A DNA stretch of 58,379 nucleotides from an uncultured bacterium (GTDB lineage Bacteria; CAIJMQ01), in contig CAIJMQ010000043.1 in the NCBI GenBank assembly GCA_903821905.1, positions 1 to 58,379 on the forward strand, read 5' to 3'. Shown here piece after piece: positions 1,141 to 58,379 of the stretch. The notes beneath the pieces were generated by a model that was not told the DNA's origin, did not search any database, and saw only the letters and a list, made by a program, of their open reading frames with translations. The first letter of the stretch is position 1; each line of letters begins with the position of its first letter. A program made the position numbers and the translations under genes.

Positions 1141-1146
1141 ATTTAA

Positions 1147-2895: not shown

Positions 2896-3010
2896 ATAGC
2901 TCCAGAAATTAACAATTTGCTCAATAGTAAAAATGGTTAAAGATAGAGAAATTAAATTCCAATATAAACCTTTCAAGTGGGAAAATCGTAGCTCTAACTA
3001 AAAATATATT

Positions 3011-4024: not shown

Positions 4025-4053
4025 AATCTCATTAAGAATAGAAAGGAGTTTAT

Positions 4054-4326
4054 ATGGATTGGAGAGTATTTTTAGCAACTTTTAGCGCAGTATTTGTGGC
4101 GGAGCTTGCAGATAAAACACAACTTGTTGGCATTGGGATGACGGCAAAAACAGGTAAACCTGTTACAGTATGGTTTGGTTCTGTTGCAGCATATATGGTT
4201 GTTACTATTATATCTGTTTTAATCGGAGCTACTTTGGGAAAGTTCCTCAAACCGGAATTTATAAGATATGGCGGAGGATTAGTATTTATCGTGATGGGAA
4301 TTTTATTGTTTATGGGAAAACTTTAA
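4054..4326 (+). CDS. UPF0016 (GDT1/TMEM165-like) single-repeat membrane protein. Putative Ca2+/Mn2+/H+ transporter half-unit
   Basis: E-x-G-D-K-T-type signature ELADKTQ in TM1; 3 predicted TM helices; 90 aa. Confidence 0.7.
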   Translation: MDWRVFLATFSAVFVAELADKTQLVGIGMTAKTGKPVTVWFGSVAAYMVVTIISVLIGATLGKFLKPEFIRYGGGLVFIVMGILLFMGKL

Positions 4327-4369
4327 TGAGGGATATAAGCGTAAATTCAATTAATTTCCTTAATTCTAA

Positions 4370-6349
4370 TTATTTTTCTTTATTAATTAGCTGTTCAAGG
4401 GCACCCTTAATGGCTTGTTTTGTAAGTTTATCTTGCAGATTTTCCTTTGGCTCGGAAAGAGTTCCTGATATTTTAAAATCTATCCCACACCATTTATCAT
4501 CTTCTTTAGTGAATGCCCCACTCAAGAATCCCACCTTTTCAACTACATTACAACTTAATGAAAGGTGTGATGGCAAAGATAATTTCTGGTTTGAAATTTT
4601 TATTGTACCTTTACTGTCAAAATTTATGAGTTTAGGGTCTTCTACATGCGCTTTCTGAATATTGACTTCGCCATTTTCTATTGTAGATGAAACCTGAGCG
4701 GATACAAAATTGATTGAAGAAAGAGAAGGCATTTGTAGAGCTAAAGCTAAAAGATTTTGTATCGGATGAGAAGAAATTTTACCATCCCTAAACGTAAAAT
4801 CTGTGGTACCTGTAAGTGCGTTGATATCATTACCTCTACCTTGTAGTTTTATGTTTCCTTCTGCTTTACCGGTAATGAATGTTTTACCTGTTAATTCCTT
4901 CATGGCATCTTTTGCATCGATGTTCGATAAATTCATTGTTGTAGAAAAATTGGGTTCTCCATTTTTACCAAAAGTTATATTGACTTTGCCATTCATAGAC
5001 CCACCGTAAATTTTGGAGCTGAAGTTTTCTATATTAATCTCTTTATTTTCTTTTGTTATTATTGCTTTGAAAGGTGCATTAATATCAGTTACATCTCCGA
5101 TTTTCTTTAGAGTAAGTTTCCCGGAAGATATTTTCCCGTCTGATTTTATATCAGATATGTTGCCGATTGCATTGATATTTCCTGCAATTTTGCCTTGAGC
5201 AAGAGAGGGATCTTTACCTAAAACAGTGAGTACAGTACCAGCATCAATATTATTTATATTTAAGGTTACATTAAAACTGGGATTTGTAATATCTGCAAGA
5301 GTGCCTGCTCCTTTTCCTTCTACAGTCCCTCCAAAAACATTCATGTTAAGGGTTTGAATTGTAAAATTGGGATTAGCATAATGTATGTTACTTTTTATCT
5401 GGTCGATTTTTATCTTGTCCTTAACTGTAAGAGAAGGTATTGAAAGTTTTATGTCTGCTCCAGCATTAAGTCCTTGTCCTTTTATAGCAATGTCTGCAGT
5501 TAAAATTCCTTTACAGAGATCTTTCTCATCAGGTAAAAACTGACTTAGTAGTGTTTGTAAATCAATATCCTTTATGGTTATAGTAGCTGTATATTCCGCC
5601 TCTTTATTATCTACCGGGATTGTTGTATTGCCTTCCATTGCAATCGAGCCGCCAGAAAAATGAAGAGAGGTATTATCGAGATATACCATATCTTTAGATG
5701 TCTTAATACTACCTTTTATATCATTTATTGTTGGGAATAAAGATGATTCTATTTCTGCGGCTGAGAGATTAAGATTCATATCGGGGAATGAATTGATACT
5801 GTGAATATTTGCTTTTAATGTAAAGTTCTGGATTGAGATACTTCTGTTTTCTTCCGGTTTTGTGTAAGTCAAATTCCCGCCGATTATCTGGACTTGGTCG
5901 GCTACCAAGGGAATTATTTTTTTCTTTTCTTGTGGTGTTGAAGGGGTTCCTACTGTTATGAGAGGAAAATTCCATGTGCCATCGGCTTTTTGTATAAGAT
6001 GAATGTCGGGATGAATAACTTGTATTTCTTCTATTTTGAAATTCCTGCGGAGTAGTTTATAGAGGTTATATTTTAAGATAATGGTTTCGGTTTTAAGAGA
6101 ATATCCTTCAGGGAACCCTTGCGGATTCTTTATACTGAAACCATCCAATTTGGCTCCAGACATAACATTTACACTGAAATGCTCCATTTCTACAGGTGTA
6201 TTTAAAACCGTCTCGATTCTTCCTATAACAAGTTTTTTGAATTGTTCAGATTTTAAAAAGCTATTAAGTGCAAAGATTGCAATAATCAATAACAACAGAA
6301 TAGATGCAACGATAATTCCGAGAGCCTTGCCTAATTTTTTTATTTTCAT
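4370..6349 (-). CDS. AsmA-family envelope protein
   Basis: N-terminal signal-anchor, long beta-rich repetitive body, AsmA-like C-terminal region; 659 aa. Confidence 0.65.
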   Translation of the reverse strand: MKIKKLGKALGIIVASILLLLIIAIFALNSFLKSEQFKKLVIGRIETVLNTPVEMEHFSVNVMSGAKLDGFSIKNPQGFPEGYSLKTETIILKYNLYKLLRRNFKIEEIQVIHPDIHLIQKADGTWNFPLITVGTPSTPQEKKKIIPLVADQVQIIGGNLTYTKPEENRSISIQNFTLKANIHSINSFPDMNLNLSAAEIESSLFPTINDIKGSIKTSKDMVYLDNTSLHFSGGSIAMEGNTTIPVDNKEAEYTATITIKDIDLQTLLSQFLPDEKDLCKGILTADIAIKGQGLNAGADIKLSIPSLTVKDKIKIDQIKSNIHYANPNFTIQTLNMNVFGGTVEGKGAGTLADITNPSFNVTLNINNIDAGTVLTVLGKDPSLAQGKIAGNINAIGNISDIKSDGKISSGKLTLKKIGDVTDINAPFKAIITKENKEINIENFSSKIYGGSMNGKVNITFGKNGEPNFSTTMNLSNIDAKDAMKELTGKTFITGKAEGNIKLQGRGNDINALTGTTDFTFRDGKISSHPIQNLLALALQMPSLSSINFVSAQVSSTIENGEVNIQKAHVEDPKLINFDSKGTIKISNQKLSLPSHLSLSCNVVEKVGFLSGAFTKEDDKWCGIDFKISGTLSEPKENLQDKLTKQAIKGALEQLINKEK

Positions 6350-8852: not shown

Positions 8853-11201
8853 TTAGCTTGTAAACTTAAATCCTTTTTCTTTGAATAGTCTTATACATGC
8901 GTCTGCTACCTGGGGGTCATATAGAACCCCTTTATTTTTAAAAATTTCTTCTAATGCTATATCTATACCGAATGCTTCATGATAAGGCCTGTAGGCGGTC
9001 ATTGCTTCCACAACATCAGCTACACTAAGAATCCTTGCCTCAAGCATAATATCATCGCCTTTTAGTCTATCGGGATATCCGGAACCATTTATTCTTTCGT
9101 GGTGTTGGAGTACAATTTTCGCGACTGGCCATGGGAATTCTACTGTTTTTAATATATCATATCCCATTTTGGAATGAGTTCTGACTAAATCCATTTCTAT
9201 ATCAGTCAATTTTGAAGGTTTCCCAAGGATTTCTGCAGGAACTGCTATTTTACCTACATCATGAATAAGTCCTGCCATGCGGACTGCGTCTATCTGCTCT
9301 TGGGGTAATTTCATCTCTTCGGCTATAGCACATGCAAGCTGTGTTGTTTTTTGCTGGTGACCGGAAGTATATAAATCCCTTATTTCAACTGCAGATGCTA
9401 AAGCGGTTATCGTTTCTTCAAAAGCTCTTTTTAGTTTCTGGAAACTTTTTTCAAGTTCTTCTTCTGCTTTTTTTCGGTCAGTTATGTCAATCATCGTTGT
9501 TCTGACACTGGTGATTTTATCATTGCTATCATATTCAAATATGTCATCAATATTAACATGAAAATTTTTACCATCTTTTGTTACATATATTCGGTCTTTT
9601 GCTTCAGGGATAGATTTACCTGCTATCTTTAGCAGGAATCTTTTTTTTGCTTCTTCTTTTTGTTCCGACAGTATAAAATCAAATATAGGTTTCCCTATCA
9701 TCTCTTCAGGTTTATATCCAAACATTTTTGCCTCAGTGTGGTTTACGCTTGTTATAATCCCTTTTTTGTCCAAGATATGATACGCAACAGGGGCATCATC
9801 CCATAGTTCTCTGTATCTCTCTTCGCTAGTTTTGAGGGCTTCTTCTACAAATTTGTGTTCACTTATATCTCTGCAAATAGCCAACATGCTTGTTACTTTT
9901 CCTTTATCATCTTTTAATAGGGTTATAGACATTTGCGTAGGGAATACAGTCCCATCTTTTTTTGTATGATAAAGTTCACCTATCCATTCGCCCTTTGTCC
10001 TTATTTGTTGCAATTTTTTCTTAACCTCTTTTTTCTGTTCATCGTTATGTAAATCTAAAACTTTCATCTTAATTATTTCTTTGGGGGAATAACCGTGCAT
10101 TTTGGCAAAAGAATTATTTGTATATATCAAATTTTCTTCCAAGTCGCAGATTACTATTCCATCATTAGATTGTTCAACGGCAGAACTGAGTTTTTTTATC
10201 TCTTCTTCCGCCTTTTTACGTTCAGTAGTATCTTGAGATGTAAGAATTGCACCCTGGGGAAATGGTGAGATCGTTATGGACAAGAATTTACTGCCATATT
10301 TTTGTTCAGAGAATGTTTTTGTTTTTCCTAAACGAATGCACTCCATTAATTCAGAATACATATCAAGTTCGTGTTTATTTGCATAATCTTTATACATTAT
10401 GTCCCCGATATTTGGTAATCTGTCGCCGGATTTCTTTTTTGTTAAATTGAAACTAACGATTTCCCCTTTAGTATTTACGACTATGGTTTCTATCGGATTA
10501 TATTCAAATAAAGTTCTACTAAATTCTTCGTTTTTCTTTAATTGGTCCTCAACCCGTTTACGTTCTGTAATGTCTTGTATGGTTACCCGAATACCTGTGA
10601 TTTGTCCATTATCATCTAATAGAATCCTGTCATTTAGCAGAACCAATATTGAAGTCCCGTCTTTATGACGATAAGTGCGTTCAAAATGTGGAGATGGTGG
10701 AATAATTCCTTTAATTTTGTCCATGAATGCCTGATGTGATATTTCACGTTCCACAACAAAATCCCATACATAGTGTCCCAACATTTCCTTAGCAGTATAA
10801 CCAAGCATTTCCAACTCGGTGTGGTTAACCTGTGTGATTTTTCCCTCAATATCCAGTTCGTGGTAACCAATAGGTGCTTCATTAAACAATTCCTGAAGTT
10901 TTACGTCACGGTTTTTTAGTTCGTTTTCTATCCGAGATTCCAGGAAAGCGTAGAAAAGAGAACCCCACATTATGGGTATTAATATTCCGATAATGTCTCC
11001 GTAGATGTCAAAAGCATTGTTTACGCCGGTCCGTTCGAAAACATTACAGAGATGATAAAACAAAATTAAAGTAAGAAGTCCCAAAAAAAAGAACTTAATA
11101 CCCGGGTGCGAAACAGACTTCCACCTGGATAAAAAAATTATAAAAGCTATTGCAATAGTAAAAAAAGAAATAGTGTCAAGAATATTTATTATTAACTCCA
11201 C
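8853..11201 (-). CDS. Membrane-anchored multi-PAS HD-GYP phosphodiesterase (c-di-GMP signalling)
   Basis: N-terminal TM helices, at least four PAS-like repeats, and a C-terminal HD domain with HDVGK and HHERINGSGYP (HD-GYP) motifs; 782 aa. Confidence 0.85.
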   Translation of the reverse strand: MELIINILDTISFFTIAIAFIIFLSRWKSVSHPGIKFFFLGLLTLILFYHLCNVFERTGVNNAFDIYGDIIGILIPIMWGSLFYAFLESRIENELKNRDVKLQELFNEAPIGYHELDIEGKITQVNHTELEMLGYTAKEMLGHYVWDFVVEREISHQAFMDKIKGIIPPSPHFERTYRHKDGTSILVLLNDRILLDDNGQITGIRVTIQDITERKRVEDQLKKNEEFSRTLFEYNPIETIVVNTKGEIVSFNLTKKKSGDRLPNIGDIMYKDYANKHELDMYSELMECIRLGKTKTFSEQKYGSKFLSITISPFPQGAILTSQDTTERKKAEEEIKKLSSAVEQSNDGIVICDLEENLIYTNNSFAKMHGYSPKEIIKMKVLDLHNDEQKKEVKKKLQQIRTKGEWIGELYHTKKDGTVFPTQMSITLLKDDKGKVTSMLAICRDISEHKFVEEALKTSEERYRELWDDAPVAYHILDKKGIITSVNHTEAKMFGYKPEEMIGKPIFDFILSEQKEEAKKRFLLKIAGKSIPEAKDRIYVTKDGKNFHVNIDDIFEYDSNDKITSVRTTMIDITDRKKAEEELEKSFQKLKRAFEETITALASAVEIRDLYTSGHQQKTTQLACAIAEEMKLPQEQIDAVRMAGLIHDVGKIAVPAEILGKPSKLTDIEMDLVRTHSKMGYDILKTVEFPWPVAKIVLQHHERINGSGYPDRLKGDDIMLEARILSVADVVEAMTAYRPYHEAFGIDIALEEIFKNKGVLYDPQVADACIRLFKEKGFKFTS

Positions 11202-46676: not shown

Positions 46677-48083
46677 ATGGAAATCCCTCAAAATAGTTTA
46701 GCAAGGAGTTTGCCGAGTCAGCTATTTTTCTTAACAGGAGAAACTCCCGAAGCTATTGTAGAACAGCTTGAAGTTCTGGAAAGTTTTCTCGAGAAGAGCC
46801 AGGAAGTATCTCTTTGTGATTTGGCTTACAAACTCTATCTTGAGAATTCTAAAAAGAAACAAAATCCTAATAATCAAACACTTGCCATTGTGACTGAGTC
46901 CTTAGAAGAGCTGAAAAAGAAGATTAAATTCGCTAAAGATTTACTTAAACAGCATCCTGAAGTTATACCTGCCAGCCATTTTGTAGGTGGGGGAGATTAT
47001 AAAGGCATATATTTTTCTTCTAACCCAATCCCAAAACCCGGGAAAATCGCTTTTATTTTTTCCGGGCAGGGTTCTCAGAGACCTAATATGTTAAAAGATT
47101 TAACAGTTCTTTTCCCGCAAATGCAGGAAAGTATTTCAAGAGCAGACCTTGTTCTTAAAAACCGTTTTCCCAAGTTGTTAAGTGAGTATATCTATCTTTC
47201 TTCCTCTTCTACTCCGCAGGAGGAGCAACTTAATATGGAAAAGTTAACGCAAACCAATATTGCTCAACCTGCTCTTGGTGCTGTGGAGACCGGACTGTTG
47301 AAAATTATGAAACTATTCGGTGTGAATCCGGACATGGTAGCAGGACATAGCTTAGGTGAATATGTGGCTCTTTATGCAGGCGGTGTTTTTGAAGAGGAAA
47401 TTCTGTATGAGCTTTTGGAATATAGAGGTTCGACAATCATAAATTCAAGTAAGGGTGGCGATTTGGGTAAAATGCTTGCGGTCGGTGGGAATGCAAAAGA
47501 TATAGAAGGAATTATTAAAGAAGTAGATAATGTATATATTGCAAACTTGAATTCTCCTACCCAAACAATACTTTCAGGCAACGAAGAAGCGCTTGATTTA
47601 GCAAGTTCTAAGCTTGAAGAGAAAGGTTTTAGGTCTAAGAAAATAAATGTAAGTTGTGCTTTCCATTCTCCGTATATGGCTCCTGCAAGGGATTTGCTGT
47701 TTAAAAAGTTGTCTTCTCTGGATTTTAAAACTTCTTTAATCCCGGTTTATTCCAATCTAACAGCTACTCAGTATCCCGAAGATAAAAAATCAATACTCTC
47801 TATTTTAAGCAACCACTTAATCAGTCCTGTCAACTTTACAGACGAAGTGGAAAATATGTTCAGAGACGGAGCTAAAATATTCATAGAAATTGGTCCAGGT
47901 AATGTTCTAACAAATCTCATCAAACAGATTCTTGATGATAAAGAGTATCTGGCTATACCTTCAAATATAAAAACTGTGTCTGATATCAGCCAAATCCTTA
48001 ATGTTCTTGCCCAGCTTATGGCTGAAGGGTTTAAAGTTAATATATCTCCTATATTTGAAGATAGAAACTTTAGAGTGTCATAG
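46677..48083 (+). CDS. Standalone acyltransferase (malonyl-CoA:ACP transacylase-like AT domain) with an N-terminal PKS-type KS-AT linker-like extension
   Basis: GQGSQ, active-site GHSLGE and AFHS motifs, preceded by ~120 aa resembling the post-KS linker of modular PKS/PUFA synthases; 468 aa. Confidence 0.75.
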   Translation: MEIPQNSLARSLPSQLFFLTGETPEAIVEQLEVLESFLEKSQEVSLCDLAYKLYLENSKKKQNPNNQTLAIVTESLEELKKKIKFAKDLLKQHPEVIPASHFVGGGDYKGIYFSSNPIPKPGKIAFIFSGQGSQRPNMLKDLTVLFPQMQESISRADLVLKNRFPKLLSEYIYLSSSSTPQEEQLNMEKLTQTNIAQPALGAVETGLLKIMKLFGVNPDMVAGHSLGEYVALYAGGVFEEEILYELLEYRGSTIINSSKGGDLGKMLAVGGNAKDIEGIIKEVDNVYIANLNSPTQTILSGNEEALDLASSKLEEKGFRSKKINVSCAFHSPYMAPARDLLFKKLSSLDFKTSLIPVYSNLTATQYPEDKKSILSILSNHLISPVNFTDEVENMFRDGAKIFIEIGPGNVLTNLIKQILDDKEYLAIPSNIKTVSDISQILNVLAQLMAEGFKVNISPIFEDRNFRVS

Positions 48084-48095
48084 GAGTGTTCAAGA

Positions 48096-49136
48096 ATGTC
48101 ATACAAAAATATAATAATCCTGCCTTTCTTGGTTATATTTTTGCTTTGTCAGACAAAGATTGGCATATGTATTGAGAAAGAAACTATACCTCTTTTGTCT
48201 GATAGAGTTTTTAATCATGCTACCAGTTTATTGGAACTGCCAGATGGGACTCTTTTGGCAGCGTGGAGTTCTGGAAGTAAAGAAAAAAATAGAGATAATG
48301 CTATATTACTTAGTTTTCAAAATCCTGACAGTGGAGAATGGAGCACGCCAGAGATACTTGTGGATACACCCAATAGAGCAGATGGTAATCCAGTTCTTTT
48401 TCTGCTTAATAACGAAGTTTACTGTTTCTATTCTGTTCTTTGGGGTAATGGATGGAGTACTGCTCAACTTTTTTATACTAAGTCAAAATTAAATGGCACT
48501 GATTTTTCATGGACTTCTTCCAAAAGGATTTTCCCTTCCTATAGAATGGGGGATTTAGGTAGAGGGAAACCTATAATTTTAAATGATAAAGAATTCATCC
48601 TTCCTTTATACAAAGAGTTTAGCGGCTATTATTCATATGTGTGTAGGTTTATAGACGGAAAGATTGTTTATCATTCCCGTCTTATAAGGTCTATCCCGGG
48701 GAATCTTCAGCCAGCTATAATTCAAACATCTGATGGCAATATTCTTATGTTGATGCGTCCTGAAACAGGCGGTTATTTCTGGCAGTCTATTTCTCATGAT
48801 AAAGGGAAGGCATGGGATGAGATAATAAAAAGAGAAGATTTGTCTAATCCTGGTTCGGGATTTGATTTGTTGAGACTTAACTCAGGGAATATAATACTCA
48901 TTTTTAATGACGCATTCCAAAACCGCAATAATCTCACATTGGCATTGTCGGAAGATGAGGGGAAAAGTTTTTCTATAAGAAAAGTTTTGGAAGAAGAGAA
49001 AGGTGTGGATTTTTCCTATCCTTCTGCAATTCAGGATTCAAAAGGGAAAATCCATATCATCTATTCAGTAAATAAAAAAGAAATAAGACATATTGTTTTG
49101 AATGAGAGAGAAATTTTAGAAGATCAAAAACAATAA
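48096..49136 (+). CDS. Secreted BNR/Asp-box beta-propeller protein (sialidase-like fold)
   Basis: Signal peptide and Asp-box-like S-x-D-x-G-x-x-W/F motifs (SHDKGKAW, SEDEGKSF); 346 aa; starts 12 nt after the AT gene. Confidence 0.65.
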   Translation: MSYKNIIILPFLVIFLLCQTKIGICIEKETIPLLSDRVFNHATSLLELPDGTLLAAWSSGSKEKNRDNAILLSFQNPDSGEWSTPEILVDTPNRADGNPVLFLLNNEVYCFYSVLWGNGWSTAQLFYTKSKLNGTDFSWTSSKRIFPSYRMGDLGRGKPIILNDKEFILPLYKEFSGYYSYVCRFIDGKIVYHSRLIRSIPGNLQPAIIQTSDGNILMLMRPETGGYFWQSISHDKGKAWDEIIKREDLSNPGSGFDLLRLNSGNIILIFNDAFQNRNNLTLALSEDEGKSFSIRKVLEEEKGVDFSYPSAIQDSKGKIHIIYSVNKKEIRHIVLNEREILEDQKQ

Positions 49137-49144
49137 ACTCTAGT

Positions 49145-50077
49145 TCAAATTATCTTTTCCCTAAAATGTCTAATTGTTTTTTGAAGTCCTTCATCAATTC
49201 CAACTTTTGGTTGCCAATCCAGCAAATTTTTTGCTTTTGAAATATCTGGTCTTCTAACTTTTGGGTCATCTTCCGGAAGGGGTTTGAATAAGATTTTACT
49301 CTTGCTTTTAGTTATGGTTAATATCTTTTTAGTAAAGTCCAATATTGTCATCTCTTGAGGATTGCCAAGATTGATCGGATCATGAATTGGAGAATCCATT
49401 AATTTTAATATGCCTTCTACAAGGTCACTTATATAACAGAAACTTCTTGTTTGTTCCCCATTTCCAAATACGGTCAAGGGTTTTTCTTTAAGAGCTTGAT
49501 TGATAAAAGTTGGGACTACTCTGCCGTCATTTAACCTCATCCTAGGACCATAAGTATTGAAAATTCTGGCTATTCTTGTATCTAATTTGTGATATCGATG
49601 ATAAGCCATAGTCATAGCCTCTGCGAATCTTTTTGCTTCGTCATATACTCCTCTTGGGCCTATACAATTTACATTTCCCCAATATTCTTCTGATTGGGGA
49701 TTTACTTCAGGGTCTCCATAAACTTCGGATGTTGAAGCTAATAAATATTTTGCTTTCTTTGTTTTTGAAAGCCCCAAAGTATTATGTGTACCCAATGCCC
49801 CTACTTTTAGGGTCTGTATCGGAAACTTAATATAATCAATAGGCGAGGCTGGAGATGCAAAATGCAATATGTAATCCAATCCCCAGGGAATATCGATATG
49901 TTCAGTTACATTATGTTCTATAAATTGGAAATTTGGTGAGGGGAAAAGATGATTAATATTTTTCTTGTCTCCAGTTATGAAATTATCCATGCATATTACT
50001 TGATTCCCTTTTTTTATAAGCTCTTCACACAAGTGAGAGCCAATAAATCCTGCTCCACCGGTTATTAAAATTCTCAT
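49145..50077 (-). CDS. UDP-glucuronate decarboxylase (UDP-xylose synthase), SDR family
   Basis: TGGAGFIG Rossmann motif, SDR YxxxK, strong similarity pattern to UXS; 310 aa. Confidence 0.85.
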
Positions 50078-51312
50078 TCTGATATTTTGTATTTATTTAG
50101 TTTACCGCTTAATGCGGGTGGAATTTCCGCAGTGATTTTAACTCCATCATTCCCGAACTTCTTAAGAATAATTTTCCCTTCGTTGTAAATCATAGAAAGA
50201 ACGTCCATCTTGTTAAAGGGTATTAAAAATTTTACAACCTCTCTTCTCGATGGAAGTAGTTGAAGCAACTTGGTTTTTAACAAATCCATATTATTCCCGT
50301 TTAAACCAGATATAAAAAGCCCGTCTGGGAAAAATCTTTGAATCTCTCTTTTCCCCTCTACAGTAAGCTTGTCTTCTTTATTTAAAACCGTAATAGTAGG
50401 CCTATCTGATACGTTAAGTTCTTTCAGTAAATTTACTACGACCTTATAATCTCCTTCCACATTAACACTTGCCGAATCTATAACATGGATAAGAATGTCG
50501 GCATAGTTCACCTCTTCTAATGTAGATTTGAATGATGCTATTAGTTGGTGGGGAAGTTCTCTTATAAAACCTACGGTATCAACAAGAAGTACCTTCTGGT
50601 TATTACCTATGTCAATTCTCCTCATTACTGAATCGAGAGTTAAGAAGAGCTTGTCACCTTGGGGGAAATTCGAAGAAGACAAATGGTTTATCAATGTAGT
50701 CTTGCCCGAGTTTGTATATCCCACTAATACAACTAACGGGATCATCTTTTCCTTTCTTTTTTTTCTTTGAAGTTCCCGATGAAGCGATATCTTTTTTAGT
50801 CTTTTCTTAAGAAGCGTAATATGTCCTCGGATTGTTCTTCTGTCATATTCCAGTTTTGTCTCACCAGGTCCACTAGTTCCAATGCCTCCACCCAGTTGAG
50901 AAAGTTCTATTCCTTTGCCGGTAAGGCGAGGGAGTGAATAATTCGCTTTAGCAAGTTCCACTTGTATTTCGCCTTCCCTGGAACTTGCATGCTGGGCAAA
51001 GATATCCAATATCAGTTGAGTCCTGTCAATCACTTTTGTTTGTGTAACTTCTTCTAAGTTCCTTTGTTGAACGGGACTTAATTCATGGTCAAATATTATC
51101 AAGTTAGAGTTTTTTTGTTCGCATAAGTCCCTTAATTTTTCTGCCTGACCTTTTCCAATAAAGAGATTTGGAGTAGGTGAGAGGAAATCAAATCTTATAC
51201 AGTCTACTATTTCGGCCCCCGCTGTTTTAGCAAGTTGTTTCAGTTCTTCTTGTGGGTCATAATCTCGATATTTTTTAGCTGACACCAGTATGGCTAATTC
51301 CTTTTCTCTCAT
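50074..51312 (-). CDS. hflX: GTPase HflX
   Basis: HflX N-domain, G-domain [18 protein letters not shown]; 412 aa. Confidence 0.9.
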
Positions 51313-51435
51313 GATTGTCGTTATTTTACTCTGTTATTTTAAATAATGATAGGGCGTCTCTAATGTGGTTTACTACATTTACCAAATGTGTTATATTTAC
51401 AGCCTAAGAGTTGAGTAACGGAAGGAGGCATAATT

Positions 51436-53442
51436 ATGGTGTTGGTAGAGAACATAAGAAATGTCGCATTAGTATCGCAAAGTAATACCGGTAAAAGCTC
51501 TTTGGTCGCAAGTTTACTAACCCATGCCAAAGCAATCCAGAAGATTTCCAAGAAAGAAGAGTCCCACCTAATCTCTGATTTTACTCAGGAAGAGAAGGAA
51601 AGAAATTTCACTCATACAATCAAAATGTTCAATTTTTCTTATGATAAATTCAGTTTCAATTTAATAGATACTCCGGGTTATCCAGATTTCATTGGGGAGG
51701 TAATAAGTGCTCTTGCTGCTGTTGATGGTGTGATTTTTGTATTGGATGCAACAGGCAATATTGAAGTTCAAACAGAACAAATATGGCATATGGTCCAAGA
51801 AAAAAGTTTACCGCATTTGGTTTTTGTAAATAAGATGGATAGAGAAGAAGCAGACTTTACTAAAGTTTTAAAAGAGCTGGAAGAAAAATTAAACAAACAA
51901 TTTGTTCTGGTTCAAATGCCCCAAAGCGACGGGGGGATTTTGAAAGAAGGTGTAGATCTAATTAGCGAACCCGAAGCTATCCCAAGCGAAATGTTGGAAT
52001 ACAGAGAGAAATTAGTTGAGAGCGTAGCAGAGACGGATGATAGTTTAGTTGAGAAATATTTAGAGGTTGGTAAGCTTACTCTTGATGAGATAAAAAAAGG
52101 ATTAAAGATAGGGGTAAAACAGGGCACATTTTCACCGGTTGTATGTGGTTCTACATATGCAGATATAGGGATTGATTATTTAGTCAAATTCTTGATTGAT
52201 TTTTTCCCGACCCCTATAGAGAAAAAGGTGCTAGATAAAGATGGTAAATTGGTGGATATTATTGATATAAAAGATTCATTGGCTCAGGTGTTTAAAGTGA
52301 CTTCTGAACTTCATTTAGGAGATGTTGTTCTCTTCAGAGTGTTTTCAGGTAGATTTTCTGCGAGTTCCCTTGTTTATAATGTCTCAAGAGATTTGGAAGA
52401 AAAATTTGGGCAAAAAATACAGATTGTCAAAGGCCATACAAAAGATGAAGTTGATAGCGTCGGCCCAGGCGAAATTGCTGGAATAGCTAAACTTAAAGCT
52501 ACAAAAGTTTCCGATACTTTATCTAACAGCAGAGGTACAGTAGTTCTGAAATCTTTGGAATTCCCCTCTCCCAACACTTCCGTAGCTGTAGTTCCTAAAG
52601 AAAGTAAAGATGAGGAAAAATTAAGTTTTGCTCTTGACAGATTAGTCAGGGAAGATCCTACTCTTAGAATTGGTTTCAATAAAGAATTTAGTGAAATGGT
52701 ACTCTCTGGAATGGGAGAGTTACACCTAGGTACAGTATCTAAAAGATTGGCAAGTAGATTTGGAGTGCATGTTGAATTCAAAGAACCAAGAATACCTTAT
52801 AGAGAAACCATTAAGGGAATAGCTAAAGTTCAAGGTAAGTACAAAAGGCAGACAGGTGGGCATGGTCAATATGCAGATGTTTGGATAGAGGTTGAACCTT
52901 TACATAGAGGCAAAGGGTTTGAATTTGTTGACAAAATAGTTGGAGGAAAAATTCCTTCCAAATTTATTCCTTCAGTTGAGAAAGGGGTAAGAGAGGCCTT
53001 AAGCAAAGGTATTACTACGGGTTATCCCTTGACTGATATTAGGGTTAGTCTATATGATGGAAGTTTTCATGAGGTTGATTCTTCCGATATAGCTTTCCAA
53101 ATAGCGGGTTCAATGGCTTTAAGAGATGCAGTCCAGCAAGCAAAACCTATCATTATTGAACCTGTCATGGAAACAGAAATAACTTTACCAGAAGAACATG
53201 TTGGAGATGTGACAGGAGATATTAATTCCAGGAGAGGAAGAATAATCAACATTGAACCTAAAGGCCATTCCAGGGTAATAAAAGCACATGTTCCTCTTGG
53301 TGAATTGCACAGGTATGCTTCAACACTGAAATCCATAACACAGGGGAGAGGAACATTTCAGATGAAATTTGCTTGTTACGAAGAAACGCCTTCTCATATA
53401 GCTAAAAAGATTAGTGAGGAGTCTGCACACAAACCACACTAG
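51436..53442 (+). CDS. Divergent EF-G-like translational GTPase paralogue with the catalytic G3 His replaced by Tyr
   Basis: Five-domain EF-G architecture (domain IV KRQTGGHGQYADV). G1 is SQSNTGKSS, the G2 region is ERNFTHTI, G3 is DTPGY, and G4 NKMD is intact. 668 aa. Confidence 0.8.
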   Translation: MVLVENIRNVALVSQSNTGKSSLVASLLTHAKAIQKISKKEESHLISDFTQEEKERNFTHTIKMFNFSYDKFSFNLIDTPGYPDFIGEVISALAAVDGVIFVLDATGNIEVQTEQIWHMVQEKSLPHLVFVNKMDREEADFTKVLKELEEKLNKQFVLVQMPQSDGGILKEGVDLISEPEAIPSEMLEYREKLVESVAETDDSLVEKYLEVGKLTLDEIKKGLKIGVKQGTFSPVVCGSTYADIGIDYLVKFLIDFFPTPIEKKVLDKDGKLVDIIDIKDSLAQVFKVTSELHLGDVVLFRVFSGRFSASSLVYNVSRDLEEKFGQKIQIVKGHTKDEVDSVGPGEIAGIAKLKATKVSDTLSNSRGTVVLKSLEFPSPNTSVAVVPKESKDEEKLSFALDRLVREDPTLRIGFNKEFSEMVLSGMGELHLGTVSKRLASRFGVHVEFKEPRIPYRETIKGIAKVQGKYKRQTGGHGQYADVWIEVEPLHRGKGFEFVDKIVGGKIPSKFIPSVEKGVREALSKGITTGYPLTDIRVSLYDGSFHEVDSSDIAFQIAGSMALRDAVQQAKPIIIEPVMETEITLPEEHVGDVTGDINSRRGRIINIEPKGHSRVIKAHVPLGELHRYASTLKSITQGRGTFQMKFACYEETPSHIAKKISEESAHKPH

Positions 53443-53502
53443 AAATATCAATTTTATTTGTATTAGTGTATAATCCCCAACTGGTAAAAAGTGAGGTGAA
53501 AG

Positions 53503-54270
53503 ATGTCAGGACATAGTCATTGGGCTAGTATAAAACATAAAAAAGGAAAAGCCGATGCTGAAAAAGGTAAAATTTTCAGTCGGGTAGGCAAACAAATAAC
53601 AATTGCAGCACGCAGTGGCGGAGATGTTAGTATGAATGCCGCGTTAAGAGTAGCGATAGATGCCGCCAGGGAAGCCAATATGCCGCAGGATAACATAACC
53701 CGCGCTATAAAAAAAGGAACAGGAGAATTGCCGGGTATTGTCCTGGAACAATGTAGTTATGAAGCATATGGCCCCGGCGGAGTAGCTTTTTTTATAGAAG
53801 GAATAACTGACAATAAAAATAGAACATCTGCTGAAATAAAGCATATATTTTCAAAATTTGGCGGTAATCTTGCATCTCCGGGTTCTGCGGCTAGGTTTTT
53901 TAAGAAGAAAGGCGTGATAAACATCTCTATATACAAAACAGATGAAAAAACAGATAAATTCAACGAAGAAGAGTTAATGGAACTTACCATAAAAACAGGA
54001 GCTGAAGATTTTGAAATAGAAACAGACCAGTGTGTTCTAATTACCAAAGCAGAGGATTTAAATAAAGTTAAAGAAAGCCTTAAAAAAGAGAAAATCAATA
54101 TATCTTCTTCTCAAATTGAAATGTTCCCTGAAAATCCCATTAAAGTTGACGAAAAGACAGCAGAAAAAATAATACAGATTATGGAAACCTTGGAAGAGCA
54201 CGATGATGTTCAAAATGTCTTTGGAAATTTTGATATTCCGGATGAGATAATGGAAAAAGCAATAAAATAA
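53503..54270 (+). CDS. yebC: YebC/PmpR (TACO1) family protein
   Basis: MSGHSHWASIKHKKG start characteristic of the family; 255 aa. Confidence 0.9.
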   Translation: MSGHSHWASIKHKKGKADAEKGKIFSRVGKQITIAARSGGDVSMNAALRVAIDAAREANMPQDNITRAIKKGTGELPGIVLEQCSYEAYGPGGVAFFIEGITDNKNRTSAEIKHIFSKFGGNLASPGSAARFFKKKGVINISIYKTDEKTDKFNEEELMELTIKTGAEDFEIETDQCVLITKAEDLNKVKESLKKEKINISSSQIEMFPENPIKVDEKTAEKIIQIMETLEEHDDVQNVFGNFDIPDEIMEKAIK

Positions 54271-54369
54271 ATTTATAAATAGAAAAAGCTAGACAAATAT
54301 CCAATTAAAAGAAGGGCGGGGGTATACGAGAATCTTATCCCTGCCTTTATTATTTTGTGGTAGAATTAA

Positions 54370-56004
54370 TTGATAGATATGAATAAAAATAGAATTATAA
54401 TTGTTTTGTTTTCAGTTGTTTTTTTATTCAGTGTAAATAATTCGGCAATGGCTGCGGGAAAACAATACTTATCTCCCTTTCTATCATTTGAAGGTTTATT
54501 CCCAGTTTCGGTTGCACAATTCGGGACTGGAGATTTTTCAATGGGTTTTTGGTTTCAAAACCCCGAGAGATGCCCTAATTATTTTGTTATAAATGTTCAA
54601 GACCCAGGCCAATCAAAATATGTCGTTGTTGGATGGCCTCAGGGGCAGGAAGTTTTGCAGGCAATTATGCACTCCGGTTCAACCACTATAACCGCCCAGA
54701 CAGATTATACTCTTTCAAGCACTCCCCATTTGCTTTTTTTGACATGTGATAGGAGCGAAACAGATGGCTTGAAGTTATGGTTAGATGGAGTTGTTGTCGC
54801 AACAGAAAATCCAACTTCTTTAGCTTCTATTGATTTCAGCCCAAGTTCCGAAACAGGAATAGTCCATATTAATTCTGGTGCTATTCAGAGTGGATTTGAC
54901 CCAGGAGACCAACTTTTTGATGATGTTCAGATATACACTGGGAAAGCATTCACCCCTGCCGAAATGGCTACAATCTGGAATAACGGAAAGGGCACGGAGG
55001 TAAATGAAACGACATTTGCATCTATTGTAAGCAATGGGGCTTATTGCAATTTTAACGGCAATAATTTTTATACTTATTCCACTGGAGCAGTTTCTTTTAT
55101 TGAAGGAGAAAACATTATTAACGGTGTCGGGACAAGTTGGACGGAAAGTATGAACCATGGAACAATCTATATTCCATCAATAGATAAAAAGTATCTGATA
55201 CTCTTTGCTATGCCAAATAATCCACCATATCAGGAAGGCGATGCAATACTCATCGGAAACGATGAAGTATTGCCAAGCAGCGGAAGCGAAGTTTCATATG
55301 TAATTACTGCCATAGGATTAAATATCCCAATGAGAAAATTAATAAACGGTGTTTGGTCTGATGAAAACTTGGTTTTTGCAGATTATATTGGGCGTGATTT
55401 TTCAGTTGGTGGAGTTCCTTTTACACCTACCACCACGGCTATCGCTACCGCAGGAGGAAATCCATATACTTTTGATAATTGGTCAACCTCCTTACCGATT
55501 TTAGTCACCTTAAGCTGTGATGATGTTTCTGGCCCTGGTTGTGGTACGACTTATTATTGTTCCGATACGGATAATAGTTGTACGCCAACAACAGTTTATT
55601 CAAGTGCAGTGTCGGTTTCTACTGCAGGGACGTCATATATCAGATTCTATTCTACGGACATGAATGGTGCCTCAGAAGCGATAAACAGTTCGACAATCAA
55701 AATATACCCCACTCCTTCCGCCAATGTAGACATTTCCTCAATTGATAATAGAAGTAATAATTGTTTCATAGCTACAGCTACTTATGGCACTCCAATGGCA
55801 GAGGAAGTTAGAGTTTTAAAGCAGTTTAGAAACGAATACCTGCTTACAAACCCGATAGGAGAAGTATTTGTAAACACTTACTATAAAATGTCTCCACACA
55901 TCGCCGATTTTATAAGAGTACACACTATATTAAAGAAGCCAGTTAGATTTATATTAAATCCTTTGATTTGGGTGAGCAGAAAAATAACAGAAGCAAGGTA
56001 TTAG
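54370..56004 (+). CDS. Secreted LamG/concanavalin-like domain protein with a conserved Cys-initiated C-terminal tail
   Basis: Signal peptide, a LamG-like block (LKLWLDGVVVATENP), and a C-terminal ~75 aa beginning NCFIATATYGTPMAEEVRVLKQFRNEYL; 544 aa. Confidence 0.6.
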   Translation: MIDMNKNRIIIVLFSVVFLFSVNNSAMAAGKQYLSPFLSFEGLFPVSVAQFGTGDFSMGFWFQNPERCPNYFVINVQDPGQSKYVVVGWPQGQEVLQAIMHSGSTTITAQTDYTLSSTPHLLFLTCDRSETDGLKLWLDGVVVATENPTSLASIDFSPSSETGIVHINSGAIQSGFDPGDQLFDDVQIYTGKAFTPAEMATIWNNGKGTEVNETTFASIVSNGAYCNFNGNNFYTYSTGAVSFIEGENIINGVGTSWTESMNHGTIYIPSIDKKYLILFAMPNNPPYQEGDAILIGNDEVLPSSGSEVSYVITAIGLNIPMRKLINGVWSDENLVFADYIGRDFSVGGVPFTPTTTAIATAGGNPYTFDNWSTSLPILVTLSCDDVSGPGCGTTYYCSDTDNSCTPTTVYSSAVSVSTAGTSYIRFYSTDMNGASEAINSSTIKIYPTPSANVDISSIDNRSNNCFIATATYGTPMAEEVRVLKQFRNEYLLTNPIGEVFVNTYYKMSPHIADFIRVHTILKKPVRFILNPLIWVSRKITEARY

Positions 56005-56037
56005 TACGTTAAAAAAATTCAAAATTGGTGTGTAATA

Positions 56038-56066
56038 TTGACAGATTTATAAAAGTAGAATATAAA
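56038..56066 (+). promoter_or_regulatory. Sigma-70-type promoter (TTGACA, 17 nt, TATAAA) upstream of the GLUG-repeat gene
   Basis: Consensus -35 with optimal spacing. Confidence 0.45.
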
Positions 56067-56122
56067 GAATAGGTTATGAATAAGTGTAGGAGTTTAAATA
56101 ATCTTACAAAAAATAATTTCTT

Positions 56123-58379
56123 ATGAGATATTATAAAAAAACAATTTCTTTGCCTGTTTTACCAATAGCCCTTGTAGTCATTTTTCTGCTCAATTTCCTC
56201 CCCACGTCAGTAATGGCTTTTTCCGGTTCGGGAAGCGGGACTTTGGAAAGTCCGTATGTGATAACAACCGTAGATCAGTTACAAGAGATGAGTAATAATT
56301 TGACCGCATACTATGTTTTAGGAAACGACATGAATGCTTCTGCTACACAGACATGGGACGGTGGCAAGGGTTTCAATCCTATCGGTTGCAGCACCATTTA
56401 TCCTGAATGTGGAACCCGCCCTGCTGGAAAATTCAATGGATCTTTAGACGGCAATGATCATATTATAAGTAATCTTTTTATTAATCGTCCATTAGAAAGT
56501 AATGTCGGTCTAATAGGCGCTACAGACTCGAATGCAATTGTAACCAATTTGGGTTTAGAGAATATTAATATAACAGGGGGATCTGCTACCGGCGGTCTGG
56601 TTGGGCATTGGAGAGGGAACCTTATTTCTAATGTTCATACTACTGGTATAGTGCACGGAGGATTTCAAACCGGTGGTATTTCTGGATGGGGTGAAGCCGG
56701 TTCTATTTACAATATTTTAAACTCCTATTCTGAATGCGATATAATTTCAACTAGTGCTGATGCAGGCGGCCTTGTTGGAGAAGGCGAATACGGAGGAATT
56801 TATAATTCTTATGCTACAGGGGACGTGTCGGGATCGGAAGGTGTCGGTGGCCTTATTGGAGACAGCGAAGGTTGTGGTATTTACAATTCTTACGCTACAG
56901 GGGATGTCTCAGGATCGGGAAACAAAGTTGGTGGTCTCAGAGGATACAGCGAATCTGGTGGCGATCCTGTCATCAACTCTTATGCTACGGGCGATGTGTC
57001 AGGGGCAAACTGGGTTGGTGGCCTTGTCGGGTACAATGAAGTTCCCATATTAAACTGTTATGCTACGGGTGATGTGTCAGGTTCAAACTATGTTGGCGGT
57101 CTTGCCGGTTTAACTACAGATGAGGGCCCTATTTCCAATTCTTACGCAATAGGAAATGTAGATGGGGGAAATCAACTTGGTGGTTTTGTAGGAGGATGCA
57201 CTACTGGTGATTGCCCTATTTCCAATTCTTACTCAACAGGAAACGTAAGTGGAGCCACTCAAGTAGGCGGCTTTATGGGAACAGCAGGAAGTTTGGTTTC
57301 CAATTCTTACTCAACAGGCTTTGTTACAGCAAGCAGCAATGCAGGCGGACTAATCGGTGTTATTACCGGAGACCCACCCACTAATTGTTATTGGTATGAC
57401 CAAGAAGACGATGCCGTTGATTGCTATTTAGGTGGCAACGATGGCTGTACTAAAAAAACAAGCGCAGATGGTCTTCAGTATTTTTACACCATCAGCAACT
57501 CGCCGATGAGTTCGTGGAATTTTACCAGTATCTGGGGGTCGTGGCTTAATGGCATAAATTATCAACCATTACTCTTTCAAGACATTACTACTCCTACCTG
57601 TTCTATTTTTTCAATCTCCGAAACATCAAGTTACGCTTACACTTCTGGTTCTACTATCTATTACAATACTGCTTACTCAGGTTCTTTTACTGTTAATGTT
57701 TTAGCTAGTGATAGCGAATCAGGTATCCAGAAAGTAAATTTCCCGGATACTGTTTCTGCTGGCGGCGATGATACTGACTCTCCCTATTCCTTTATTTACG
57801 ACTGGGACACATCCGATACCTTCTCCCAATCAGCCGATGTTACCTGTTATGACAATAACGATAATACCGAAACAACTTTATTTACCGTCACAAGAGACAT
57901 TACAGCTCCTTCAGGAGGAACTATCTCATATACTGACGGCATTTATACATCTCGTTCCGTCCCCATAACATACACTTTAGGTTCAGATTCTGTTTCAGGC
58001 CTCAATTCCTCTACAGGCAAGATTCAGAAAAGAGAAGCTATTTACTCAGGAGCAAGTTGCGGAACTTTTGGTGATTGGTCTGATTTAGTAACAGAATCTG
58101 ACGGTTCTTATACAGATACCACCGTTTCCTTTGGCAAATGTTATCAATACCGCTATCTTATTTCAGACAATGTTTCAAACCAAGCTGTATATACATCTTC
58201 AAACATTGCTACGATAGGAATTCCTCCCGACATCGATAGTGACGGCATGCCGGATGCCTGGGAAACAGAAAACGGTTTCAATCCCCTTGACCCTACCGAT
58301 GCAACCCAAGATACCGATAATGATGGTTTCACCAATTTAGAAGAATACCAGTTAGGCTATGATCCCAATAATGCATCCC
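56123..58379 (+). CDS. Large secreted GLUG-motif repeat surface protein (3'-partial, runs off the window end)
   Basis: I translated the frame by hand and it stays open from the ATG at 56123 to the window end (>750 codons). The track omits it because it has no stop. It has a signal peptide, a GSGTLESPYVIT start, at least 7 NSYATGDVSG...VGGL (GLUG) repeats, and a TSP3-like Ca-binding repeat (DSDGMPDAWE...DTDNDGFTNLEEY) at the end. Confidence 0.8.
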   Translation, partial: MRYYKKTISLPVLPIALVVIFLLNFLPTSVMAFSGSGSGTLESPYVITTVDQLQEMSNNLTAYYVLGNDMNASATQTWDGGKGFNPIGCSTIYPECGTRPAGKFNGSLDGNDHIISNLFINRPLESNVGLIGATDSNAIVTNLGLENINITGGSATGGLVGHWRGNLISNVHTTGIVHGGFQTGGISGWGEAGSIYNILNSYSECDIISTSADAGGLVGEGEYGGIYNSYATGDVSGSEGVGGLIGDSEGCGIYNSYATGDVSGSGNKVGGLRGYSESGGDPVINSYATGDVSGANWVGGLVGYNEVPILNCYATGDVSGSNYVGGLAGLTTDEGPISNSYAIGNVDGGNQLGGFVGGCTTGDCPISNSYSTGNVSGATQVGGFMGTAGSLVSNSYSTGFVTASSNAGGLIGVITGDPPTNCYWYDQEDDAVDCYLGGNDGCTKKTSADGLQYFYTISNSPMSSWNFTSIWGSWLNGINYQPLLFQDITTPTCSIFSISETSSYAYTSGSTIYYNTAYSGSFTVNVLASDSESGIQKVNFPDTVSAGGDDTDSPYSFIYDWDTSDTFSQSADVTCYDNNDNTETTLFTVTRDITAPSGGTISYTDGIYTSRSVPITYTLGSDSVSGLNSSTGKIQKREAIYSGASCGTFGDWSDLVTESDGSYTDTTVSFGKCYQYRYLISDNVSNQAVYTSSNIATIGIPPDIDSDGMPDAWETENGFNPLDPTDATQDTDNDGFTNLEEYQLGYDPNNAS
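56790..57380 (+). repeat. Tandem, degenerate repeats of ~75-90 nt encoding the GLUG units
   Basis: Recurring NSYATGDVSG(S/A)..VGGL codon blocks. Off-frame ORFs in the track (56754-57053, 57768-57968) are artefacts of this region. Confidence 0.7.

Follow-up and report, generated by a model that had tools for sequence, protein, structure and literature searches.

Elongation factor G (EF-G) paralogues of the EFG II (EF-G2) subfamily are among the most widespread translation-factor paralogues in bacteria, and the literature still calls their role unknown or "stress-specific" (PMC4342817; bioRxiv 10.64898/2026.05.25.727771). The subfamily has been defined by a relaxed G2 motif together with a set of signature positions, and by genes that lie outside the str operon in genomes that also have an EFG I gene or an spdEFG pair (Margus et al. 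2011, PMC3150367). Its members bind the factor site of the ribosome, where they are regarded as translocases that are slow or hydrolyse GTP poorly, or as stress-specific regulators (bioRxiv 10.64898/2026.05.25.727771; Bacteroides EF-G2, PDB 8DMF). Here we examine an EF-G paralogue encoded in a 58,379-nucleotide contig of an uncultured bacterium (CAIJMQ010000043.1 of assembly GCA_903821905.1; this whole stretch is called the window hereafter), where its gene is followed by yebC and flanked on the other side by a divergently transcribed hflX.

Proteins of the YebC/TACO1 family were recognised as translation factors just in 2024-2026 and are now placed at the ribosomal site used by EF-Tu and EF-G. 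TACO1 occupies the factor-binding region in contact with bL12, uS12 and the A-site tRNA, and it is a competitor of EF-Tu (PMC12996406). Likewise, YebC and YeeN are putative A-site binders; their excess inhibits translation, which is explained by the competition of TACO1 with EF-Tu, and their levels must be kept from interfering with both EF-Tu and EF-G (PMC13284719). In E. coli, yebC was also found to be a multicopy suppressor of the loss of BipA, a GTPase of the EF-G family (PMC7682190). Our literature search found no report of a YebC/EF-G gene neighbourhood or of a conserved yebC partner for EF-G2.

We favour, with moderate confidence, the reading that the window is an unremarkable piece of an Omnitrophota chromosome in which the EF-G2 gene and yebC form a conserved and probably co-transcribed pair, and in which hflX is a neighbour acquired only within a sub-clade. 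The ancestral order would then have been EF-G2-yebC-ruvCAB. The closest named homologues of the paralogue, at 74% identity, come from metagenome-assembled genomes of Candidatus Omnitrophota (including MBU0533585.1).

All three genes are present exactly where the first-pass annotation placed them, and Pfam and NCBIfam models confirm the identities that it assigned. The EF-G paralogue (51436-53442, + strand) is a protein of 668 amino acids with the five domains GTP_EFTU, EF-G_D2, EFG_III, EFG_IV and EFG_C. Downstream of it, yebC (53503-54270, + strand) encodes 255 amino acids that score 299.6 bits with NF001030 (cutoff 243), 103.6 bits with PF20772 (TACO1_YebC_N) and 173.4 bits with PF01709. Its nearest solved structures are AQ_1575 of Aquifex, CBU_1566 of Coxiella and E. 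coli YebC (1KON), at 192-235 bits, with TACO1 at 105 bits. On the opposite strand, hflX (50074-51312, 412 amino acids) reaches 420.5 bits with the equivalog model TIGR03156 (cutoff 216.75) and contains the domains GTP-bdg_N (PF13167), GTP-bdg_M (PF16360) and MMR_HSR1 (PF01926). The divergent gap of 123 bp that had been described between hflX and the EF-G paralogue was also measured as such, at 51313-51435 between the ATG codons at 51312 and 51436.

The position of yebC directly downstream of the EFG II gene and on the same strand is constant in 12 of 12 contexts, which extend from 80% down to 43% EF-G2 identity (the window, P0001, L081, L083, L172, L088, L085, L086, L087, L089, L090 and L091, where P and L numbers are our labels for contigs and loci). 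The two genes are separated by 8-206 bp, with operon-like gaps of 8-40 bp in L087, L090, L086 and L172. All seven contexts with 43-64% identity (L088, L085, L086, L087, L089, L090 and L091) carry the order EF-G2-yebC followed by ruvC, usually with ruvA and ruvB as well. Moreover, the pair persists where ruvC no longer adjoins yebC (the window and L083/84) and where the upstream genes are wholly different.

The same arrangement recurs among much more distant EFG II genes, which we sampled in two independent sets, of 75 loci from species-representative genomes and 73 from metagenomes, about 148 in all among the matches listed. The scan of species-representative genomes (profile A1) gave no relative closer than 47% among the matches listed, and the metagenome scan with a clade-only profile (A3) gave one close relative that was already known and 79 distant ones, again among the matches listed. 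Directly downstream and on the same strand, yebC-ruvC is found in representatives of UBP18 (L001), Verrucomicrobiota (L022), Planctomycetia (L027) and Gemmatimonadota (L067), as well as in three metagenome-sample loci (L106, L126 and L151). In two other loci yebC-ruvC lies within approximately 600 bp (L155 and L163), in two it is divergent (L051 from Chloroflexota, and L162), and in one from Latescibacterota it is 3.6 kb away (L055). In total, about 8% of the distant loci, from several phyla, show EFG II-yebC linkage. If the one or two yebC-family genes of a genome were placed at random among its few thousand genes, we estimate that well under 0.1 such adjacencies would be expected in 148 loci, and the recurrence is therefore not due to chance; the cases are not phylogenetically independent. 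The EF-G2-yebC adjacency is real and deep, but taken alone it is no proof of cooperation between the two products.

The distribution of hflX is different. The order hflX(-), EF-G2(+), yebC(+) is present in four relatives with 69-80% EF-G2 identity, namely P0001, P0004 (L081/82), P0009 (L083/84) and P0011 (L172), so that with the window there are five contexts in which hflX adjoins EF-G2, all at 69% identity or higher. In three of the four relatives, gene order is also largely shared over 10 kb of unrelated genes upstream, including those for NAD kinase, aconitase-family subunits, an alginate-export protein, an acyltransferase, a BNR protein and the epimerase. The fourth, L172, keeps the trio though the genes beyond hflX are replaced by cstA. 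At lower identity, hflX is not found beside EF-G2 in the loci that have readable upstream sequence (L085, L086 and L090, at 54%, 52% and 46%), where unrelated genes occupy the position, and it adjoins EFG II in none of the approximately 148 distant loci of the two samples. On this evidence, hflX is a recent neighbour gained only within the sub-clade of this organism and is not part of the unit.

The proposal in the first-pass annotation that the three genes form a co-regulated module has therefore fared unevenly. Its EF-G2-yebC portion extends to 43% identity and into other phyla, whereas its hflX portion is confined to close relatives. The EF-G2-yebC adjacency is kept to a degree well above chance expectation, and the hflX adjacency is not. 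The arrangement of the three genes is in any case not peculiar to this genome, as the four relatives named above share it.

The gene downstream of hflX encodes an NAD-dependent sugar epimerase/dehydratase (49145-50077, - strand; Pfam GDP_Man_Dehyd and Epimerase, E values of 1e-48 to 1e-50) that lies outside the conserved unit. The two genes share an overlap of 4 nucleotides (50074-50077), which suggests that hflX in the window is operon-linked to a gene of sugar metabolism rather than of translation, and hints at translational coupling between them in this genome. In L172 the epimerase gene is missing and cstA is found beyond hflX instead.

Putative signals for a bicistronic EF-G2-yebC transcript can be recognized in the window. 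A promoter-like site consisting of TTTACT, a 17-nucleotide spacer and TATATT, preceded by TG, was located by consensus scan at 51369-51397 (+ strand) and is a candidate promoter for the pair. It is spanned by the block TTTACTAC.TTT..CAAATGTGTTATATTTAC, which is conserved between the window and L081. The strong Shine-Dalgarno sequence GGAAGGAGG of the EF-G paralogue follows at 51420-51428 (+ strand), and its GGAGG core is conserved in the window, L081 and L083. The 60-nucleotide gap between the EF-G paralogue and yebC (53443-53502) carries no terminator-like hairpin (fold z-score 0.06) and no terminator match, and it contains the strong yebC Shine-Dalgarno sequence GAGGTG at 53493-53498 (+ strand). 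Downstream of yebC, a 13-bp hairpin followed by AUUAUUUU forms a terminator-like element (54312-54356, + strand) with a predicted folding energy of -22.8 kcal/mol (z -2.47; matched by 2 of 200 shuffles), and this element is likely to mark the end of the EF-G2-yebC transcript. The promoter-like site, the hairpin-free gap and the final hairpin with its U-tract fit the view that the two genes are probably co-transcribed.

Between 49000 and 56200, matches to terminator and promoter consensus sequences are not more numerous than in shuffled sequence, and sites were kept only if they had support from conservation or folding. The gap upstream of yebC also contains a perfect TATAAT hexamer (53469-53474, + strand), located 29 nucleotides before the yebC start and lacking a good -35 element, which could be a secondary yebC promoter or a chance occurrence in an AT-rich genome. 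No RNA element was matched in an Rfam search of positions 48000-58379 at E values of 1 or less. The region between hflX and EF-G2 measures 123 bp in the window and 162-390 bp in relatives, and the promoter-like block facing the EF-G gene is the only part of it that is conserved; comparison with the relatives revealed no shared operator in this region. In L081, where it is longest (9611-10000, 390 bp), about 270 additional nucleotides separate the promoter-like block from the Shine-Dalgarno sequence and would constitute a long 5′ leader.

The family to which the paralogue belongs was assessed with profile models and signature residues. It scores 780.9 bits with NF009381 (PRK12740.1-5; cutoff 583), and remains below the cutoffs of the canonical EF-G model TIGR00484 (589.6 versus 659.4 bits) and of NF009377 (PRK12740.1-1, the model named EF-G2; 549 versus 890 bits). 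Models of Tet ribosomal protection proteins are far under their cutoffs (NF012153, 313.5 versus 775 bits; NF033148, 206.9 versus 1100 bits). The protein departs from canonical EF-G (EFG I, fusA) not only in its TIGR00484 score but also in its P-loop, in its catalytic His position and in its context, the gene lying outside a str operon in the 58-kb window, where no rpsL, rpsG or tuf and no second EF-G-like gene or other translational GTPase gene was found. An AF2 model (pLDDT 88.7) shows the full five-domain EF-G fold, with TM scores of 0.8-0.92 to ribosome-bound EF-G. Similarity to entries in the Protein Data Bank was rejected as a discriminator between EF-G and EF-G2, as the structures of EF-G, Thermus EF-G-2, M. 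smegmatis EF-G2 and B. thetaiotaomicron EF-G2 are all about equally distant (31-38% identity) and phmmer favours the slowly evolving canonical EF-G.

Signature positions were taken from Table 1 of Margus et al. 2011 (PMC3150367), in the numbering of 1WDT, and scored on an alignment of 86 sequences. The strong signatures of EFG II, which are Leu25 (99%), Gly333 (98%) and Lys or Arg at 352 (100%) in that survey (PMC3150367), correspond to L23, G333 and K352 of the window protein, where canonical EF-Gs have T or V, A and G. The basic character of loop I in domain IV is likewise present, with K470 at the position of Lys471 and R471 at that of Lys472; canonical EF-Gs have Val or Ile at 471, and other EFG II proteins have K in 74 of 75 cases, then K or R. 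Leu25, Gly333, Lys352 and Lys471 are thereby common to the window protein and to 63-75 of the 75 other EF-Gs that lack the catalytic His. The weaker signatures Gly16 (86%), Ser61 (76%) and Thr291 (81%) (PMC3150367) are replaced by Ser14, Thr59 and Val288. Ser at position 16 is found in 11 of the 75 other His-less proteins and Thr at position 61 in 23, and Val at position 291 is nearly restricted to the clade.

The P-loop reads SQSNTGKSS (51475-51501, + strand), compared with AHIDAGKTT in canonical EF-G and GHxxxGKT in typical EFG II; its S-Q-x-x-x-G-K-S framework is invariant in the clade at 50-80% identity, with loss of the Gly or Ala and the His of AHxDxGKT/GHxxxGKT, and the P-loop Asp is replaced by Asn. 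RNFTH replaces RGITI in G2, while GKS, DTPG and NKMD are retained, as in the relaxed G2 motif that characterizes EFG II. The G3 motif is DTPGY (51667-51681, + strand), which a phmmer alignment places opposite DTPGH of T. thermophilus EF-G, so that Tyr82 occupies the position of the catalytic His and the His-to-Tyr change reported by the first-pass annotation is borne out. Judged from these features, the paralogue is a divergent member of the known and widespread EFG II/EF-G2 family with a clade-specific P-loop.

Loss of the catalytic His is general in this family. Tyr or Phe follows DTPG in 120 of the 120 best database homologues of the paralogue. Among 86 fetched loci, the catalytic position is Tyr in about 43, Phe in 16, Asp in 16 and Glu in 3, with Ala or Val also seen; just 5 have His, and those are canonical EF-Gs with AHIDAGKTT that lie beside rpsL-rpsG. 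As a positive control, DTPGH was present in all 11 canonical EF-G loci fetched, and rpsL and rpsG adjoin in the five of these from the genome sample. The view that a GTPase-impaired EF-G mimic is a component specific to this locus consequently does not stand, since the His-less state is ordinary across the whole of EFG II.

GTP binding seems to be retained by the paralogue. Residues G19, K20, S21, T59, D78, G81, N132, K133, G238 and S239, all involved in GTP binding, are invariant in the clade alignment, as is Tyr82, and the loops RQTGGHGQY and SFHEVDSS at the tips of domain IV are conserved. Because the GTP-binding residues, Tyr82 and the domain IV tips do not vary in the clade, the paralogue appears to be under selection as a nucleotide-binding, ribosome-binding factor.

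Whether such a protein hydrolyses GTP efficiently can be approached through its relatives. M. smegmatis EF-G2 has Tyr98 in place of His88 and its ribosome-dependent GTPase is minimal, and the H88Y substitution in EF-G1 almost eliminates GTPase activity (bioRxiv 10.64898/2026.05.25.727771). The P-loop Asp helps to bind a monovalent cation (PMC4342817). T. thermophilus EF-G-2 (1WDT) reads DAPGY, with Tyr as in the window protein, and M. smegmatis EF-G2 (9K0Z) reads DTPGY; work cited in PMC3150367 and in bioRxiv 10.64898/2026.05.25.727771 credits the T. thermophilus protein with intrinsic and ribosome-dependent GTPase activity and with activity in poly(Phe) synthesis. Tyr82 was for this reason rejected as proof of GTPase loss. 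Weak GTP hydrolysis by the window protein is plausible from its motifs, but it is not established, because T. thermophilus EF-G-2, reported to be GTPase-active, has the same Tyr.

Several accounts of the locus compete with the one preferred here. That hflX, the EF-G paralogue and yebC make up one co-regulated module for ribosome rescue or hibernation, expressed from the divergent region of 123 bp that they share, now seems very unlikely and is already largely refuted by the gene-order data. All three products do act on ribosomes, and the trio persists in five contexts at 69% identity or more, one of which has cstA beyond hflX. However, hflX is not adjacent at 54%, 52% or 46% identity or in the distant loci, the intergenic region is anywhere from 123 to 390 bp long with conservation limited to a promoter-like block that faces the EF-G gene, hflX overlaps an epimerase gene by 4 nucleotides, and neither an Rfam element nor a shared operator was found there. 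It is still harder to credit, and in our estimate extremely improbable, that the paralogue is the main or only translocase of the organism, a fast-evolving housekeeping EF-G. The lack of a second EF-G gene in the 58-kb window would fit this idea, as would the phmmer score of 518 bits to canonical Thermus EF-G versus 377-408 bits to the solved EF-G2 proteins and the full conservation of the domain IV tips. Yet the protein is below the canonical cutoff, is devoid of both the catalytic His and the P-loop Asp, lies outside an rpsL-rpsG-fusA-tuf context and bears EFG II signature residues, and genomes with a single EF-G always have one of EFG I type in the survey of Margus et al. 2011 (PMC3150367).

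The most serious competitor holds that the EFG II-yebC adjacency is an inherited order without functional meaning, in which the paralogue has not yet separated from an ancient yebC-ruvCAB cluster. We consider it somewhat unlikely, although a number of observations speak for it or weigh against a functional pair. About 92% of the distant EFG II loci have no yebC nearby. Where the linkage exists, ruvC follows yebC in almost every locus, and we know of no functional tie behind this classical yebC-ruvC linkage. Within the clade at 50-76% identity, collinearity runs through yebC-ruvCAB-metG-pyrF-rpsO-infC-rplT, and because this whole downstream string is collinear the pair is no more conserved there than are unrelated genes. 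The yebC-linked EFG II proteins also lie near each other on a neighbour-joining tree, which fits one ancestral linkage followed by losses; that tree, built from BLOSUM distances with a midpoint root and without support values, is crude and serves only for a qualitative reading.

Moreover, neutral clustering of flanking open reading frames revealed other lineage-specific, strongly conserved EFG II neighbourhoods with no obvious translation logic. One set has lspA-, rluD- and lgt-like genes upstream (15-16 loci; L021, L026, L046 and the L119-L166 group), and another has gatC/gatA upstream and etfB/etfA-like genes downstream (13-15 loci; the L111-L167 group), the gene names in both sets being read from representative sequences. 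Because EFG II has such other conserved neighbourhoods, adjacency alone is weak evidence of shared function. Two further points weigh against the preferred account, namely that the TATAAT hexamer at 53469-53474, together with a promoter-like site at 53029-53058, could give yebC a transcript of its own, and that T. thermophilus EF-G-2 is reported to be GTPase-active despite its Tyr. Several features are nonetheless difficult to reconcile with inheritance alone. The adjacency reaches down to 36-43% identity and at least five named phyla, and gene order outside operons is normally scrambled at such protein divergence. The EF-G2-yebC linkage outlives both the break between yebC and ruvC (in the window and L083) and a full turnover of upstream genes, many of the gaps are of operon-like length (8-40 bp in L087, L090, L086 and L172), and both products would bind the same ribosomal site.

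A likely mode of action can be proposed for the two proteins. The paralogue would still bind the ribosomal factor site, since its GTP-binding residues are kept, as are the tips of domain IV, which touch the decoding centre. Given the replacement of His by Tyr and of the P-loop Asp by Asn, and given its degenerate RGITI motif, it would most likely be an alternative translocase that is slow or poor in hydrolysis, or else an occupant of the factor site, as reported for other EF-G2 proteins. YebC may bind at or near the same A-site/factor site and make peptide bonds form faster on proline-rich and other difficult sequences. If both were expressed from one promoter, this would set the ratio of EF-G2 to YebC, two users of the same site. 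Beyond the gene identities, family membership, motif states and gene-order conservation observed here, we infer co-transcription and weak GTPase activity, and a functional hand-off between the two proteins would be speculative.

A stronger form of this idea, which we regard as speculative and unlikely, is that EF-G2 and YebC are a dedicated factor-site pair that provides a low-energy "slow lane" of elongation, encoded as one operon in Omnitrophota and in scattered other phyla. YebC would steady the A-site tRNA and push slow peptide bonds, after which the His-less EF-G2 would translocate with little or no GTP hydrolysis. Such a pair, if it exists, would supply a defined partner and a defined role for the EFG II family, which has long gone unexplained. 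If the adjacency is no more than inherited order, the locus is an ordinary one, a stretch of an Omnitrophota chromosome with three known translation genes of housekeeping or stress function.

The surroundings of the pair vary among relatives. In the window, yebC is followed, where relatives have ruvCAB, by a gene for a 544-amino-acid CFI-box-CTERM protein (54370-56004; NF041770, 92.8 bits), and then by a long secreted-protein open reading frame of at least 754 amino acids with a signal-peptide-like start, which extends from 56117 past the window end at 58379. No ruvC was found in the 4.1 kb of the window downstream of yebC, and no tandem repeats were found in 55500-58379. In P0001 a gene for a 1261-amino-acid LVIVD/beta-propeller protein is inserted between yebC and ruvC, and the site downstream of yebC seems to take in large surface-protein genes. 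On the upstream side, a hydrocarbon-metagenome contig (L089) has about 5.5 kb 5′ of EF-G2 without called genes (460-6000). Several relatives have a small gene with the Pfam domain 23S_rRNA_IVP (a bAvd-like four-helix bundle) that lies next to, or between, the genes of the large and small aconitase-family subunits (L083/L084, 1642-2040; L081, 2119-2469; and the P0001 contig). Elsewhere in the window, Pfam domains indicate ordinary housekeeping genes, including those for an rRNA adenine dimethylase, a RecJ-type DHH protein, histidinol dehydrogenase, an EPSP-synthase-family enzyme, alanine racemase, glycosyltransferases and others, and the GC content is even at 34-41%.

All three genes are new members of known families. 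The HflX protein resembles the ribosome-splitting GTPase in its TIGR03156 score and in its N-terminal, middle and G domains, and differs from the E. coli type in its score with NF008280 (301 bits, cutoff 441) and in the overlap of its gene with a co-oriented sugar epimerase gene; in E. coli the arrangement is hfq-hflX-hflKC. The YebC protein is like the polyproline-stall relievers YebC, YebC2 and TACO1 in having both Pfam domains and an NF001030 score above the cutoff, and its closeness to 1KON marks it as the YebC type. E. coli YebC rescues stalling in vitro (PMC13602936), and members of the YebC type have also been described as transcription regulators.

Among EF-G relatives, the pairs spdEFG1/spdEFG2 and mtEFG1/mtEFG2 and the proteins Tet(M) and Tet(O) belong to the same EF2 superfamily and use the same ribosomal site as the window protein, but they lack the EFG II signature residues. 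In addition, mtEF-G2 retains the catalytic His (bioRxiv 10.64898/2026.05.25.727771). The closest described proteins are T. thermophilus EF-G-2 (1WDT), M. smegmatis EF-G2 (9K0Z/9K10) and B. thetaiotaomicron EF-G2 (8DMF), with which the window protein shares the five-domain fold, a gene location outside the str operon, the loss of RGITI and of the P-loop Asp, and the signature residues, as well as the Tyr at the catalytic position of 1WDT and 9K0Z. It differs from these three solved EF-G2 proteins, to which it is 31-35% identical, in having the P-loop SQSNTGKSS instead of GHxxxGKT (Gly16 to Ser and His to Gln), Thr rather than Ser in G2, and Val at the position of Thr291.

The gene order has a familiar counterpart as well. 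The yebC-ruvC(AB) cluster is found in many bacteria, for example as yebC-ruvC in E. coli, and relatives of the window organism have ruvC, ruvA and ruvB after yebC in the same way. What sets these loci apart is the EF-G2 gene at the head of the cluster, and the window itself carries the CFI-box-CTERM gene and the secreted-protein reading frame in place of ruvC. The EF-G2-yebC(-ruvCAB) arrangement provides a modest, testable lead on the function of EFG II, and its span from 80% to approximately 36-43% identity in several phyla raises the question of whether EF-G2 and YebC cooperate or compete on the ribosome.

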